Assembly: GCA_015058945.1 (NCBI GenBank)
Contig: SVBF01000007.1
Coordinates: 133,850 to 197,849 of the forward strand
Direction: 5' to 3'
DNA from: Erysipelotrichaceae bacterium
GTDB taxonomy: Bacteria > Bacillota_I > Bacilli_A > RFN20 > CAG-826
Length of the DNA stretch: 64,000 nucleotides
How positions within the stretch are numbered: the first letter of the stretch is position 1; each line of letters starts with the position of its first letter. The position numbers are program-made. Below are positions 6,001 to 18,000 of the stretch, one piece after another.

Positions 6001-9000
6001 GCGTAACGCCTCGAGCATGTCCTCCCACATCAGTTCGCCGACGGGGTAATACTTGATGTCGTTATGGGTCGAGCCGCCTAAGCCCGAGGCTTTCTTTAAA
6101 TAACGGGCGAGCCCCTTATCGCCTTCTGCCATGGCGTTAAGGGCCTCTTCCTCTTGGGTGACGTCCTCGATATAGGGCTTTAGTTCCTCATAAGCCTTCG
6201 CGTAGAGCTTGCGGTCTCTCTTACGGATATGGGTATGGGAGAAGAGCAGATAGAACAAGGTGCCGAATATCGGTAGGGCCAAGACCAAGAAGAGCCATGG
6301 GATCTTGTATTCGGGGTTCTCCTTGCGGTTGACAAGGACGAGCACCACCAGGATGCCGATGACCCAGGCCGCGATCTGGAACACATAGTAGTATTCGTTG
6401 AGGTAGATGATGAGCAAGGCGATCGCCGCCACCTGCGCCAAAAGGAGCAAGGCGGAAATGCTCCACTTCGAGAAAAGGATCCTTAAGAATTTCATGGGGT
6501 GCCTCCTGGACAATGGGGATTGATCGATATCCCCTTTGACCCGTTTGGCAAATTTTACAACGGCGTCACCCTCTTGGGTATCCGAAACCCCTACTTCTTT
6601 AATCGTCGTTTCTTGACGAGCCGGAACGCGTGGCAGGGTGACAGCCGCGTTTTCTTATAAAATGTCCTTGAGCATCCTCTCGATGCACCGCTTCTTCTCC
6701 TTGTTGTCCGGGTGGACGTAGAGGTTCATCGTCGTGGTGATGTTAGAATGGCCAAGGATGACACTGACGGTCTTGACCGAATTGCGGCTCTCGATGCAGC
6801 GCGTGGCGAAGCTATGCCTCATCCCGTGGAACTTCAGCTCGGGTATGCCGAGCTTCTTCAGCGTCTTTTTATAGTAGTTCCTATATGTCCTTGGTTCTAT
6901 GGGCGACGCATCGTTGCTCAATACGTAACAATCCGGATTCACCACTTTCATCAAAGGCCTGATGGTCTTTAGCAGCTCTCCGGATAAGGGGATGTCGCGG
7001 TTGGACTCGCGGGTCTTCGGCTCCGCCACGACGATCTCGGTGAACCGCTCCTCACCGTCGACGTGATATAACCTTTGGACCGTCCTCCTGACTTTGAGGA
7101 CCCCTTCGTCGAGGTCGAAGTCGGACCACCTTAGCCCGCAGACCTCCCCTATCCGCAGACCGGTGGATAGGCATATCGCGATCCCGAGGTTGCGGAATGA
7201 GAAGTTGGATTTGGCGAATTCGAAGAGCTTCTTCTGATCCTCCTTGGCCATGATCGCGAGTTCCTGCTTCTTCGACGATTTCGGGAAGACGACATCGAAC
7301 GGGCGAAGCTGCATGAGCCCCTTCTTGACGGCAAATTTCTGGATCATCCTGATGACGACGATGATGTCCTTCACCGTCTTCTCACTCAAGCCATTCGTCA
7401 GGGAATCCAGGACGAATTTTTGGACGTCGCCCTCGAGGAACTCCTCCTTCTCGCCGAAGAACGGGATGACGTGGTTGCTGACAAGCAACGAATAAGCCGA
7501 ATAGGTTGATGTTTTAACGTACTGCTTCTTGTCGGCTTTCCAAAGAGCAGCCATTTCTTTTATGACCATAAATGTTTCCTCCTTAAGGTCGCCATATTCT
7601 AGGGAGGAAGGTTTTTTCTTTAAGAAAACCTGGCCGCAATGTTCCTACTTTGAGATTCCCAAGGTTTTCAGACCAATGGCATCAAACAGAAATCGGAGCC
7701 TTAGTGGAAATTAATCCTCGAAACAAAAAAGACATTCCTGATAGTTTCTTGTATATCGACCTCGAATCAGTTAAGCGGGGCGAACTTGTAAAACATGTCA
7801 TTAGTGATAAAAAAGGCGCCCCATCTCGAGCTCAACGTCTTTTGGAAGAGGGAGATATCCTTTATTCCTGTGTAAGGCCATATCAGCACAACAATTATCT
7901 TTTCACTGATTCCCAAACTGCCGTCGCGTCTACGGGCTTCGCGTGTCTAAGGGGCGCTGAATGTCCTGAATTCCTTTATCAATTGCTTAACACGGATAGA
8001 TTCACCAATGCCGTCTTGGAAAGGTGTACCGGAACAAGTTATCCGGCAATTAATTCAACGGATTTATCTTCAATAAAGGTCATGCTTCCTAGCAAGAACG
8101 AACAACTAGCTATAGGAACTTTGATTGGTCTGATCGATTCAAAAATCACTGTTCAAAACAAAATCATTGAGGAACTTAGTACCTTAATAATCCAACTATG
8201 TCGAACTATGAGAACGAGCCAAGATTGCCATTTGGGTGATCTATGTTCATGCAAGACAAGTCAAATCAAAGAAGGCGATCTCCAACCCGTCGGGCAATAT
8301 CCAGTTTATGGAGCCGCTGGATTGGCTGGCCGCCTCGATACATTCGAATTCAGCAAACCTGGTATTGCTATCATTAAAGATGGAGCAGGCGTTGGAAGGA
8401 GCTATGAAATCAAGTCAGAACATTATTCGGTTTTAGGAACCATGGCATTATTGCTTCCCAATGATGGGGTACCCACATCTTTTTTGTGGGCCGCCGTCCT
8501 GGGGCTTAATTTCAAAAGCTACGTTGTGGGAAGCGGGATACCGCACATCTATTTCAAGAACTACAGTCATGCAGAAATCGCAGAGCCTTCGACCTATAAC
8601 ATTACGCTGAGCCGCCTTATTTCATTGCTGAAAGGCAAACGCGAAAATGCCGAAGAAGCCCTCACTTCCCTTCAATCGCAAAAAGCCTTTTTCCTCGCGA
8701 ATATGTTTATATGAAAAGATTTTTGAGAAGGTATTGCTTTTGATCTTTCATTAGTGCAAGAGCCGACTGCTCAGTTTTGACCCTTTGCTCAAGTCTTTCA
8801 AACAGGCAAGCTATTTGCCGAATCTTTCCAGAATCGGGAATTGGGATGGTCATCGGACATACTTCTGAAATGTAATGCCTTTTATGTTCGGAAGAAGACA
8901 GTCCCAGAAATGATAAGTACTCATAAGCAAACCTAAGCGTGGGCAGGCTTTCACACGTAAGGATCTTTATGGCTGAGGACTTAACTTTGAACGGGAATGA

Positions 9001-15000: not shown

Positions 15001-18000
15001 GTAGGTGAAGATGGTGGCGATCCTGATTCTCTCCTCCTCGGGTAGCGCGGCGATCTGCTTCTTCAGCTCGTCGTAGTATTGCACGAGCAAATCGATGCTC
15101 GAAATCGCGAAGATCGCGTTGTATTTCCGATTCAGGGTGACTTTGTTGAAGTTCTCGAGGATGTGCTTGCTGATGTTGGCCACACGCTCTGGGGCACGGA
15201 TAAGCTCCTCTTTGTCGATCTCCTCGACCTGCTCGTCTTTTCCTGCCTTGACGACGATGTCGAGCGTCTTGTAGTACTGGACGTTGAAGCCGAGGACCAT
15301 CTTGGCGTTGATCGCGTCCTTGATTTTATAGGAATGGACGGGTGCGCCTCCGAAGATTGCCTCCGTGGTAAGCCCAGTCGCGTTCATGTTCTCCGCGAAG
15401 ATCGGGGTCCCCGTGAAGCCGAACATTTGCGCGTTTGGGAAGGCCCTTAGGATGTGCTTGCGCATCTCGCCGAAGTTGCTCCTGTGGCATTCGTCGACGA
15501 TAAACACGACGGAGTCCCTGTTCTGTTCCACCGCTTTCTCAAACCTTGGGTTCGTGCAGAGGTTCGACATCTTCTGGATGGTCGTGGTGATCATCTTAAT
15601 GGAAGAATCGGTGAACATTTTGAACAAACGGTATGAATCATCGATGTTGACGACGGCGCCCTTCTCGAAGGAATTGAAGTTCGTGACCGTCTGGCGGTCC
15701 AGGTCCCTTCTGTCGACTAGAAAAACGACCTTCGTGTACTTCCCGGTGTCTCTGAGGCATTGGGCGAGTTTGAAGCTCGTCAGCGTCTTGCCGGAGCCCG
15801 TGGTGTGCCAGACGAAGCCGTTGTTCTTCGTGTTGAGGGCCCTATGGAGCAGGTTCTCGACCGCCCACACCTGGTACGGCCTAAGGATCATTAGATCCCT
15901 CTCGCTCTGGTTGATGACGATGTAGTTCGCGATGGTCCTGCAGATGTTGCACTTGGTGAGCCTATCGGCGGCAAAATCGGAAAGCCTGTTGACCGCGACG
16001 TTCTCGACGTCCGACCAGGTGAAGAGGTTTTCCTTCTTGAATGGGCGGTCGCTGTTGGCGAAATATTTCGTCATCGAGCCGTTGGAGATTACGAAGTACT
16101 GGATGTATTTAAATAGCCCTTTGTAGACGGTCCTGCGGTAACGCTCAATCTGACCGAAAGCCTCGTCGACGTTCACGCCGTTTTTCTTGAGCTCAATCTG
16201 CAATAGCGGAAGGCCATTGACGAGGATCGTTACGTCGAAACGACCAGAAAATTCCGCCGTCTGGTTAATCTGATGGGCGATTTGGACGATGTTCTTGCAC
16301 CAATCGTTCTTGTCAAAGATCCGGATGTTTCGCTTCGAATCGTCATCCATGGTGATGGTCTGCATCTGACGAAGATTGATCGCACAGCGATATACAGTGT
16401 TGTACTTCTCGAGTTCGTTTAGAAGCCTTCTGAACTCCGAATCGGACAGGCTGAAACCGTTGAACCTTTCGATTTGCTTCCTGAGGTTCTTATATAGCGA
16501 GGCGTCGTCGTGGATCGCGACGAAAGCATCCTCCATGTCAGAGGAATGGAATTGCCGCCTTAACTGCTCAATAAGCTCGTTTTCTAACTCGAGCTCGGTC
16601 TGTTCCCCAATCAAGTCCGGCATCGCTAGGCCTCCACCACTCCATATTTCTTAAACAATTTCATTAGTTGTCTCTTCACTTTCATCGTCGGCTCATGATG
16701 GCCGTTTTCGTAGCGGTTGATCGTAGCGAAAGACACGCCAAGCATTTTGGCTAATTCGTTTTGGGTAATCAGGGCTTTATCTCTAAGCTCTTTGACGCTT
16801 TTCCCCCAATCCATCATTCGCCCTCCGCGCCGTTGGCCTTAAGCCAGTCGCCGAGAAGCTTCCCGTCGGATGCCGCCCACTCGGTCTTCCCATTCGCGCT
16901 GCGACCCAAAACAAACACCGCGGCAGCCGATGGGGACTTGAATTCGACGTCCTCCTGGATTATGCAGTCGGAACCGAGTTTTCCCTTAGAAGTCATCTCT
17001 TTCCTTATCTCCTCAAGGGCTTTGTGCATGGAAGGTCCTAAGACGGAGGAGATCCGCGAGCCTTTCTTGACGATGAACGTCTTGCCATCGGTCTCCATCT
17101 TAGCGTCCACGCTCAGCTTTACGGACGACAATCCAAACTGCCCCATCGCCTTTGCTGCGGCTGGGATTGGCTTTGCCGATGTGCCCCCGGCTTTCCCAAA
17201 GACGTTGTAGCCAAGAACCTCAGTGAGTGTCTTCACGATATCGGCGAACTCATCCATCTCGGCGGCGGAGGAATCCTTGATCTTCGTCGCGGGGCTCGAT
17301 GCTTTGGTAAGAACGGAGAAGTTGCCGGCATCCCTCGCGGCATTGACGAGCAGATTCTCAAGGTATTTTATCTTTGATTTATCAAGGTCCCGACCTGTGA
17401 CACAGACCGCGATGTCCCAGAAGAATTTCTCTTTCTTGGAGAGGTAGTCCGCCTTGTGCTGCTTAAGGCGCAAGCGGATGTTCTCGGACTCGCCGATATA
17501 CACCTCGCTGGCCGGATTCCCACAGAAGAGGAAATAGACTCCGATGTCGTCTAGTTCCGGTTCGCCTTCGACGTCGTCCCTGGAAATCTTGAATGCCTTC
17601 CCACTCCAGTTGGAAAGCTCGGCGGTCACCGTTCCACTGAACGAGCCGTTTTTGAGGAAAAGCTCGATTTTCTTACCGTAGGCCATAAGTCGCCTCCAAT
17701 CTCAAATCATCTTGCTTTGAGAATTATCTCACAACCGCAAACTGTTATAAAAGGATTATTAAACTCGCAACAAGATGATCCGGTCTTTTGATTGAACTGA
17801 GAACGGCAATTGCCTGCCGCGGAATTACCGCAAACGCAAGTCTAAGAAGAAGCGCCCATTACGATGGGTTTACGACGAAATCGACGACCGCGTTTTTCGT
17901 TTGGCAAGTCTGCTCGTCTCTACTAATGGAAGCGACCCCATCCCCTCGCTGAAACCCATAATCGCCGAAATTGGAATGGTTGCCCCCATCAATCACGATT

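Follow-up and report, generated by a model that had tools for sequence, protein, structure and literature searches.

A putative BfiA-type hsdS inverton of an uncultured Erysipelotrichaceae bacterium and its natural rearrangements at inverted repeats

Results

We analysed a 64,000-nucleotide stretch of contig SVBF01000007.1 (positions 133,850 to 197,849 of the forward strand; assembly GCA_015058945.1), which belongs to the metagenome-assembled genome (MAG) of an Erysipelotrichaceae bacterium and is called the window below. The window carries a Type I restriction-modification (R-M) locus in which four hsdS genes lie next to a tyrosine recombinase gene. We conclude, with a probability of about 0.88, that this locus is a recombinase-driven hsdS inverton of the BfiA type (clade 3) that rearranges naturally at its repeats. 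The anatomy of the locus and its rearrangement in nature were observed directly: in public assemblies, the same modules occur in other orders within an otherwise identical genome, the breakpoints lie in the repeats, and the exchange at the 5′ repeat is confined to 7 nt. We infer that the inversions are catalysed by the adjacent BfiA-like recombinase, and transcription is presumably limited to the expression site. A preliminary description made from the sequence alone had proposed a shufflon of the kind known from Mycoplasma pulmonis, Bacteroides fragilis and the pneumococcus, in which inversions swap the first and/or the second target recognition domain (TRD1, TRD2) of HsdS. The rearranged but identical modules, with breakpoints in the repeats, support this, and the closest known system turned out to be Bfa9343I with BfiA of B. 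fragilis.

Organisation of the hsdS block

The features of the locus, with positions in the window, are the following.

6655-7569, minus strand: tyrosine recombinase, putative invertase, 304 aa (Pfam Phage_integrase, 5e-30, and Phage_int_SAM_3)
7570-7637: 68-nt spacer between the recombinase and the shufflon, a constant outer edge that stays with the recombinase in all arrangements
7638-8714, plus strand: silent hsdS copy S1 (open reading frame (ORF) 7650-8714; Methylase_S, 7e-15; NMFI tail)
8707-9849, minus strand: silent hsdS copy S2 (ORF 8707-9837; Methylase_S; NLFI tail)
9850-9866: 17-nt spacer separating the head-to-head 5′ repeats of S2 and S3, read from the sequence
9867-11033, plus strand: silent hsdS copy S3 (ORF 9879-11033; Methylase_S, 3e-14; NMFI tail)
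11026-12193, minus strand: hsdS copy S4, the expression site (Methylase_S, 4e-37; the present ORF ends at 11117, the ancestral frame at 11026)
11146-11153, minus strand: A8 run in S4 (T8 on the plus strand), found by three-frame translation
12158-12193, minus strand: S4 leader of 12 codons, MSNQQDTKKKNP, ahead of the shared NVPTLRF motif
12190-13764, minus strand: hsdM, 524 aa (N6_Mtase, 2e-107; HsdM_N)
13780-16623, minus strand: hsdR, 947 aa (HSDR_N, SWI2_SNF2, T1R_D3-like, EcoR124_C)

Both HsdM and HsdR are present and intact with complete Pfam domain sets, as expected of a Type I R-M system. HsdM passes the NCBIfam model TIGR00497 (429.9 bits, cut-off 242.75), and HsdR passes TIGR00348 (438.2 bits, cut-off 284.55). 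The four hsdS genes alternate in orientation along the window (plus, minus, plus, minus), and the ORFs and Methylase_S matches agree with the preliminary description that only the last of them belongs to the operon with hsdM and hsdR: the ATGA at 12190-12193 overlaps the S4 start with the hsdM stop. S4 is also the only copy that has a start codon. S1, S2 and S3 are open from NVPTLRF to the stop, with no start upstream of the repeat. S1 and S2 overlap tail-to-tail at 8707-8714, as was noticed earlier. The accompanying claim that three copies encode the C-terminal tail has to be corrected, as S4 also encodes ...ANMFI and a stop in another frame, which ends at 11026 and overlaps the S3 stop by 8 nt. 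The G+C content of the hsdS block (7638-12157) is 41-43%, compared with 53-54% in the recombinase, hsdM and hsdR genes and 53% in the whole window.

Two classes of repeats are common to all four copies. The 5′ repeat, AATGTTCCTACTTTGAGATT (20 nt), stands at the 5′ end of each copy in the orientation of that copy, and the central repeat, CAAAACAAAATCATTGAG (18 nt), lies between the two TRDs.

5′ repeat: 7638-7657 (plus strand, no mismatches); 9830-9849 (minus, one mismatch); 9867-9886 (plus, one mismatch); 12138-12157 (minus, no mismatches)
Central repeat: 8154-8171 (plus strand); 9265-9282 (minus); 10410-10427 (plus); 11597-11614 (minus, one mismatch)

The preliminary description had ascribed both repeats to every copy, and each was indeed matched four times, against 0.00 matches expected for the 5′ repeat (100 shuffles) and 0.09 for the central repeat in shuffled sequence. 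The 5′ repeat encodes NVPTLRF and the central repeat QNKIIE, in the same codon phase in 4/4 copies. All differences between the copies of the 5′ repeat are non-synonymous; synonymous positions are identical in every copy. Outside the repeats, the hsdS proteins are 22-26% identical, and the DNA of their TRDs shows no more than background similarity. Because synonymous sites are identical while the proteins have diverged, the repeats are conserved as DNA, beyond the protein motifs. Atack et al. (2020) recognised inverting loci by an inverted repeat of at least 20 bp and 100% identity in another hsdS gene within 30 kb (PMC7394358). The repeats at 7638-7657 and 12138-12157 are 100% complementary over 20 nt. 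This places the 5′ repeat exactly at the limit, and the 18-nt central repeat would fall below it.

Alternative arrangements in public assemblies

Using exact-protein look-ups with the recombinase, HsdM and the silent hsdS ORFs, we collected contigs from ENA, JGI and Logan that represent about 13 samples. The modules mapped onto the contigs were the TRD1 and the TRD2 of each of the four copies, the leader and the recombinase-side spacer of the window. It turned out that the modules are 100% identical in every contig, and their order and orientation vary. There are at least four or five different arrangements, all accounted for by exchange at the repeats, in place of the single fixed arrangement that the preliminary description had named as evidence to the contrary. 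In the following list, the modules are read from hsdM to the recombinase (rec), and S4T1, for example, is the TRD1 of S4.

Arrangement A (the window): leader, S4T1+ S4T2+, S3T2- S3T1-, S2T1+ S2T2+, S1T2- S1T1-, rec; five samples, with partial contigs of three more consistent
Arrangement B: leader, S1T1+ S1T2+, S2T2- S2T1-, S3T1+ S4T2+, S3T2- S4T1-, rec; samples 3300022692, ERZ27247011 and SRR7110579
Arrangement C (partial): S2T1 adjoins the recombinase; L005 and L089, samples 3300030641 and SRR8270243
Arrangements D and E (junctions only): L009 connects S4T1 to the S2/S3 spacer, and L015 connects S3T1 to the recombinase spacer; both from sample 3300028237

In the contigs of arrangement B (L002, L003, L013 and L020), S1 is fused to the leader at the expression site and is accompanied by reciprocal chimeras of S3 and S4 that have exchanged TRD2. 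The fusion of S3-TRD1 to S4-TRD2 is seen in L002, L003 and L020 and also in the database protein P0004. Two inversions, at the outermost 5′ repeats and at the central repeats of S3 and S4, lead from A to B, and a single inversion between the 5′ repeats of S1 and S2 leads from A to C. The TRD1 module beside the 68-nt recombinase spacer may be that of S1, S2, S3 or S4, and all breakpoints fall inside a 5′ or a central repeat. The reading frames are kept after inversion: the S3T1-S4T2 chimera is open (P0004), and the leader-S1 fusion is called as a protein of 370 aa. At the level of assemblies, DNA bounded by repeats inverts here, as Huang et al. (2020) require of an inverton.

L001 is identical to the window over 17,569 nt. 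The flanks of L002, which has arrangement B, comprise 7,657 and 5,432 nt and show no mismatches to the window; therefore, the arrangements represent a rearranged single genome and not diverged strains. The junctions of L009 and L015 are mutually incompatible and come from one sample, 3300028237, which must be heterogeneous because the two junctions cannot share one arrangement. Three contigs end at repeats, as is expected where the assembly graph branches: L018 and L019 stop inside the 5′ repeat just past the leader, and L005 starts exactly at the central repeat. The same junctions recur across independent samples and across the assemblers behind ENA, JGI and Logan.

L015 reads through the leader, S4 and S3 and then, within its last ~80 nt, straight into the recombinase spacer. 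This contig could result from a double inversion or equally from excision of the S2 and S1 pair via direct 5′ repeats. Excision through direct repeats is known for the pneumococcal tvr locus. The 359-aa gene of L092 was considered as a new chimera and rejected; it is a difference in gene calling, and the arrangement is that of the window. Searches with the leader plus half of the 5′ repeat, or with the recombinase spacer plus half of the repeat, gave no matches in a metagenome contig collection that evidently does not hold these samples. A protein search with a 55-aa profile of the four possible hsdS N-termini returned one irrelevant 76-aa protein only.

Crossover position and allele capacity

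Two polymorphisms within the 5′ repeat allowed us to narrow down the position of the exchange. Position 3 (A in S2) travels with the upstream flank, as seen in L005, and position 11 (A in S3) travels with TRD1, as seen in L009 and L015. Therefore, the 5′ exchange takes place within positions 4-10, GTTCCTA, an interval of 7 nt, which is the size of a tyrosine-recombinase overlap region. The central repeat ends with an A in S4 and with a G in the other copies, and this base travels with TRD2; thus the central exchange lies within the first 17 nt. The 3′ NMFI/NLFI repeat was considered as a third recombination site; there is no evidence for this, as S1T2/S2T2 and S3T2/S4T2 stay tail-to-tail in every arrangement. 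The identity shared by this 3′ repeat is only about 13 nt.

These observations suggest the following mechanism. The minus-strand operon would run from a GIY-YIG gene through a helix-turn-helix (HTH) gene, hsdR and hsdM to the hsdS expression site, which would supply the start codon and the 12-codon leader. The three hsdS copies downstream, apparently without promoter and start, would serve in alternating orientation as a reservoir up to the recombinase gene. Exchange between oppositely oriented copies of a site would invert the DNA between them; at the 5′ sites it would move whole genes into the expression site, and at the central sites it would swap the second domain only. To estimate the capacity of such a locus, we enumerated inversions between oppositely oriented repeat copies by a breadth-first search.

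5′ repeats only: 16 arrangements, 4 expressed alleles
Central repeats only: 16 arrangements, 4 expressed alleles
Both repeat classes: 384 arrangements, 16 alleles (all combinations of TRD1 and TRD2)

In this model, 12/16 alleles are full length, and the 4/16 that use S4-TRD2 are truncated. Two alleles were seen directly at the expression site, and L009 implies that a third one, with S3T1, can also occupy it.

The recombinase and its relatives

The recombinase adjoins the hsdS block, as was claimed in the preliminary description, and begins 68 nt from the first hsdS. The locus contains an opposed hsdS pair with an invertase homologue within 10 kb, by which Huang et al. recognised such systems. 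The protein aligns to Tn1549 Int. In an alignment of 14 family members, the catalytic residues R139, K185, H248, R251, H274 and Y284 are all present and invariant; the gene is intact and is not the pseudogene that had been named beforehand as the other contrary outcome.

Relatives were sought in a scan of one genome per species, which gave 57 loci (L021-L077) in two phyla. The closest belong to MAGs of rumen Bacilli/Erysipelotrichaceae (97%, 79% and partial matches of 87-92% identity), and the rest to Bacteroidota (52-59%). In nearly all loci with upstream sequence available, this sequence matches an hsdS that points towards the recombinase, and a Type I locus usually surrounds it. Any one of the related loci has identical 5′ repeats and identical central repeats, which differ from locus to locus. 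The contigs of about twenty of the 57 loci break 100-250 nt upstream of the recombinase, which suggests that shufflons of this family routinely fragment short-read assemblies. Because such loci fragment assemblies at repeats, an annotation of specificity depends on the arrangement that happened to be assembled.

Over its full length (301 aligned residues, E 5e-123), the recombinase shares 52% identity with the one that adjoins hsdS in a B. fragilis locus (L082, GCA_015551365.1). This locus is not from strain NCTC 9343. It has two full and two half hsdS genes, like Bfa9343I, contains the published inverted repeat (IR) IR2 with 2 mismatches, and carries the exact 18-nt central repeat of the window in inverted copies. 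Identity between the invertase clades is below 30%, compared with the 52% found here for the L082 recombinase, which stood in for BF1843 itself. By homology, the recombinase of the window is classified as BfiA-like, of clade 3.

The frameshifted S4 cassette

S4 stops at 11117 after ...NIPPKKRSGSDYQNA; with one base fewer in the A8 run, it would read ...NIPPKKDQEAITKTLDCINSKLQIEQKYLALFNRLKTFLLANMFI up to the stop at 11026. The frameshift removes the C-terminal conserved helix, and the two TRDs and the central region are kept. In an alignment with solved HsdS structures (1YDX), the lost segment corresponds to the helix of the conserved region that comes after a TRD. In HsdS proteins, the C-terminal conserved helix pairs with the central helix. 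In the window arrangement, the expressed HsdS does not have both of the conserved regions expected of a Type I system. The window allele may be non-functional because it is C-terminally truncated, and S4-TRD1 with S4-TRD2 is probably a weak or OFF state. In arrangement B (L002 and others), an intact 370-aa allele, S1T1-S1T2, occupies the expression site in three samples.

Homologues that are 47-49% identical, B. fragilis proteins among them, align through the repaired tail. In a related lineage (L078, protein P0003), whose recombinase DNA is 95% identical, the run is A7, the tail is an intact ...TFLLVNMFI, and TRD2 is nearly identical. All contigs of the lineage of the window have A8, with the module 100% identical in all of them. 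The exact 358-aa product of S4 is the database protein P0001, found on 8 contigs, and no repaired form of S4 is present in a collection of 5.8 billion proteins. A sequencing error was rejected as the source of A8, because the contigs agree on the run across three data sources and assemblers, and 8 contigs encode the truncated protein. The A8 run is a real, fixed frameshift of one cassette.

It is possible in principle that slippage could reverse the truncation of S4-TRD2, or that transcriptional slippage could partly rescue it. The locus would then have two layers of phase variation, TRD shuffling and a homopolymer (A8 or A7) in S4-TRD2 acting as a movable OFF or attenuated state. We find this quite unlikely. 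The tract length does not vary within the lineage in consensus assemblies, which hide minor subpopulations. In most assemblies the expression site carries the truncated allele, which could also indicate that these communities favour an R-M-OFF state.

Operon context upstream of hsdR

Upstream of hsdR, the minus strand carries three further features.

16626-16817, minus strand: small HTH_3 protein, 63 aa (precomputed Pfam HTH_3), 2 nt from hsdR
16814-17686, minus strand: GIY-YIG/DUF4357 protein, the first gene of the apparent operon (Pfam DUF4357 and GIY-YIG)
17723-17751, minus strand: promoter-like site TTTATA-17-TGnGATAAT, found by consensus scan only

The GIY-YIG/DUF4357 protein matches the PADLOC candidate defence family PDC-S14 over its full length (3e-73). 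The HTH_3 protein has weak PADLOC matches to RmrA and Control_protein and may possibly be a controller or regulator of the R-M system. The GIY-YIG gene overlaps the HTH gene by 4 nt, and the junctions of the operon either overlap or are 2-15 nt apart. The site at 17751-17723, upstream of the GIY-YIG gene, is the sole well-placed promoter-like site, and scans of the region for promoters and terminators otherwise gave nothing above background. Given these junctions and the single well-placed site, expression of the whole set as one operon is plausible.

Discussion

Alternative explanations

Consensus assemblies are the source of all our evidence for rearrangement, and most samples show the arrangement of the window. 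One sample pair (L005 and L018) even differs from it by 12-15 single-nucleotide polymorphisms in the flanks. The arrangements might then be fixed differences between strains or artefacts of assembly, and the locus might be static within any population. We consider this highly improbable. Contigs of arrangement B match the window without a mismatch over 13 kb of flank, the incompatible junctions of L009 and L015 come from one sample, and contigs of several samples end exactly at the repeats. The repeats of 18-20 nt are far shorter than the k-mers of the assemblers (k141 in contig names); therefore, the junctions need spanning reads, and they were obtained repeatedly from independent samples with different assemblers. 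That the inversions are real and are made by homologous recombination or by a recombinase encoded elsewhere, with the neighbouring gene as a passenger, is unlikely, if somewhat less so. Identity extends over only 18-20 nt, which is short for RecA-dependent exchange, and the 5′ exchange is confined to 7 nt, as is typical of the overlap of tyrosine recombinases. The adjacency of recombinase and hsdS is kept across the 57 loci and two phyla, the repeats co-vary between loci and are identical within each, and the catalytic residues are intact. There are precedents for such an explanation. In B. fragilis, the recombinase responsible for the inversions has not been experimentally assigned (PMC7641763); in the pneumococcus, some hsdS inversions are reported to proceed without the recombinase of the locus, spnIII recombination being independent of all known site-specific recombinases (PMC6620402); and in M. 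pulmonis, HvsR acts from a distance (PMC7672463).

It is also conceivable that the system is decaying, with R-M no longer functional in the lineage and the inversions left as relics that have no epigenetic or defensive consequence. The loss of the whole C-terminal conserved helix of S4, the presence of A8 in all contigs of the lineage, the lack of a repaired form among 5.8 billion proteins and the truncated allele at most expression sites would all fit. However, a frameshift in one cassette disables only the alleles that use this cassette. The hsdR, hsdM and recombinase genes are intact and 100% conserved, as are the remaining three TRD2 modules, most of the possible alleles are full length (12/16), and the intact S1T1-S1T2 stands at the expression site in three samples; decay of the whole system is thus very unlikely. 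We therefore prefer a recombinase-driven, BfiA-type inverton. Several points weigh against it, among them the precedents from B. fragilis and the pneumococcus given above. Promoter-like sites are fewer in the region than in its shuffles, which makes the promoter call weak. Two alleles, S4T1-S4T2 and S1T1-S1T2, were seen directly at the expression site, and with the truncated one there in most assemblies, the functional output in that state is doubtful. Each allele would be expected to confer a distinct N6-methyladenine motif and restriction specificity, and it is from assemblies that we infer switching within a single clonal culture.

Comparison with known systems

About 6% of the Type I systems in REBASE are inverting loci (PMC7394358). 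Huang et al. (2020) described such loci as epigenetic invertons, with invertases in six clades. Clade 3 is typified by BfiA of B. fragilis and comprises 65 loci of Bacteroidetes and 4 of Firmicutes in REBASE (PMC7672463). The B. fragilis system, Bfa9343I with BfiA (BF1843), was also studied by Ben-Assa et al. (2020) and yields 8 alleles (PMC7641763). The locus of the window resembles it in that the recombinase lies outside the invertible block and adjoins the distal hsdS, in that four hsdS are served by a single expression site downstream of hsdM, and in its inverted repeats, which are in frame, lie at the 5′ end and between the two TRDs, and are homologous in sequence. The published IR3 of B. 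fragilis, AATTTCCCAACTTTGCGATTTCC... (aligned part AATTTCCCAACTTTGCGATT...), is homologous to the 5′ repeat AATGTTCCTACTTTGAGATT, and the published IR2, GAGCGTATCGCAACCCAAAACAAAATAAT (aligned part ...CCCAAAACAAAATAAT), to the central repeat CAAAACAAAATCATTGAG. However, the host is a MAG lineage of Bacillota (Erysipelotrichaceae) and not of Bacteroidota, all four hsdS are full-length genes with two TRDs and allow 16 possible alleles instead of 8, and there are two classes of repeats instead of four dissimilar IRs. In addition, the window has no RhuM gene between hsdM and hsdS and contains one frameshifted TRD2 cassette.

In the SpnD39III system of Streptococcus pneumoniae, the third repeat is 333 bp long. 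This system (ivr/cod), with CreX/PsrA (PMC4190663, PMC7096588), shares with the window a Type I operon in which one hsdS is expressed and several are silent, and a locus-encoded tyrosine recombinase, with inversions at in-frame repeats that give multiple specificities. The likeness is one of mechanism only. The pneumococcal invertase belongs to clade 1 and is encoded inside the invertible region, six alleles arise from partial silent hsdS genes, and the repeats are 15 and 85 bp long, with a third that is printed as 33 bp (PMC7394358). The hsd1/hsd2 loci of M. pulmonis with HvsR (PMC7672463) also have full-length hsdS in inverted pairs, with 5′ and central classes of sites on both of which one recombinase is thought to act. 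Here, too, only the mechanism is alike; the gene for HvsR (clade 6) lies at another place in the genome, and the enzyme inverts surface-antigen genes as well (PMC7672463). The A8 run recalls NgoAV of Neisseria gonorrhoeae (PMC9577141) and the Type I systems in a survey of simple sequence repeats (PMC7383803), where the length of a homonucleotide run sets whether HsdS is full or truncated. In contrast to NgoAV, A8 is found in all contigs of the lineage with no variation of the tract, the truncation costs only the last conserved helix and not a whole TRD, and a run of 8 nt is short for efficient slippage.

A locus of this kind is already well described, and the current understanding of the mechanism is unchanged. 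What the window adds is natural-population evidence, a crossover interval of 7 nt and a frameshifted cassette at the expression site. It offers a clear case from nature of hsdS shuffling, in an uncultured rumen/gut lineage of Erysipelotrichaceae, that can be seen directly in public metagenome assemblies. It also suggests that a Bacteroidota-type (BfiA) inverton operates with its recombination sites in a Bacillota host, where four full-length hsdS would give twice the allele capacity of B. fragilis. The 7-nt exchange point is a usable prediction for recombinases of the BfiA family.

Other observations in the window

The segment at 34369-34670 is 78% identical over 302 nt to that at ~4360-4661; the two belong to paralogous LytS-type histidine-kinase genes. 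An apparent 67 mismatches between the window and many loci were considered as strain divergence and rejected as such, as they come from the match to the paralogue at 34369-34670. A few kb from the R-M locus, at ~526-2130 on the minus strand, lies a 534-aa gene with a Pfam match to Thiol_cytolysin (cholesterol-dependent cytolysin), as judged from the gene calls of L001. It adjoins lipase_3 genes and is notable for an uncultured gut/rumen Erysipelotrichaceae.

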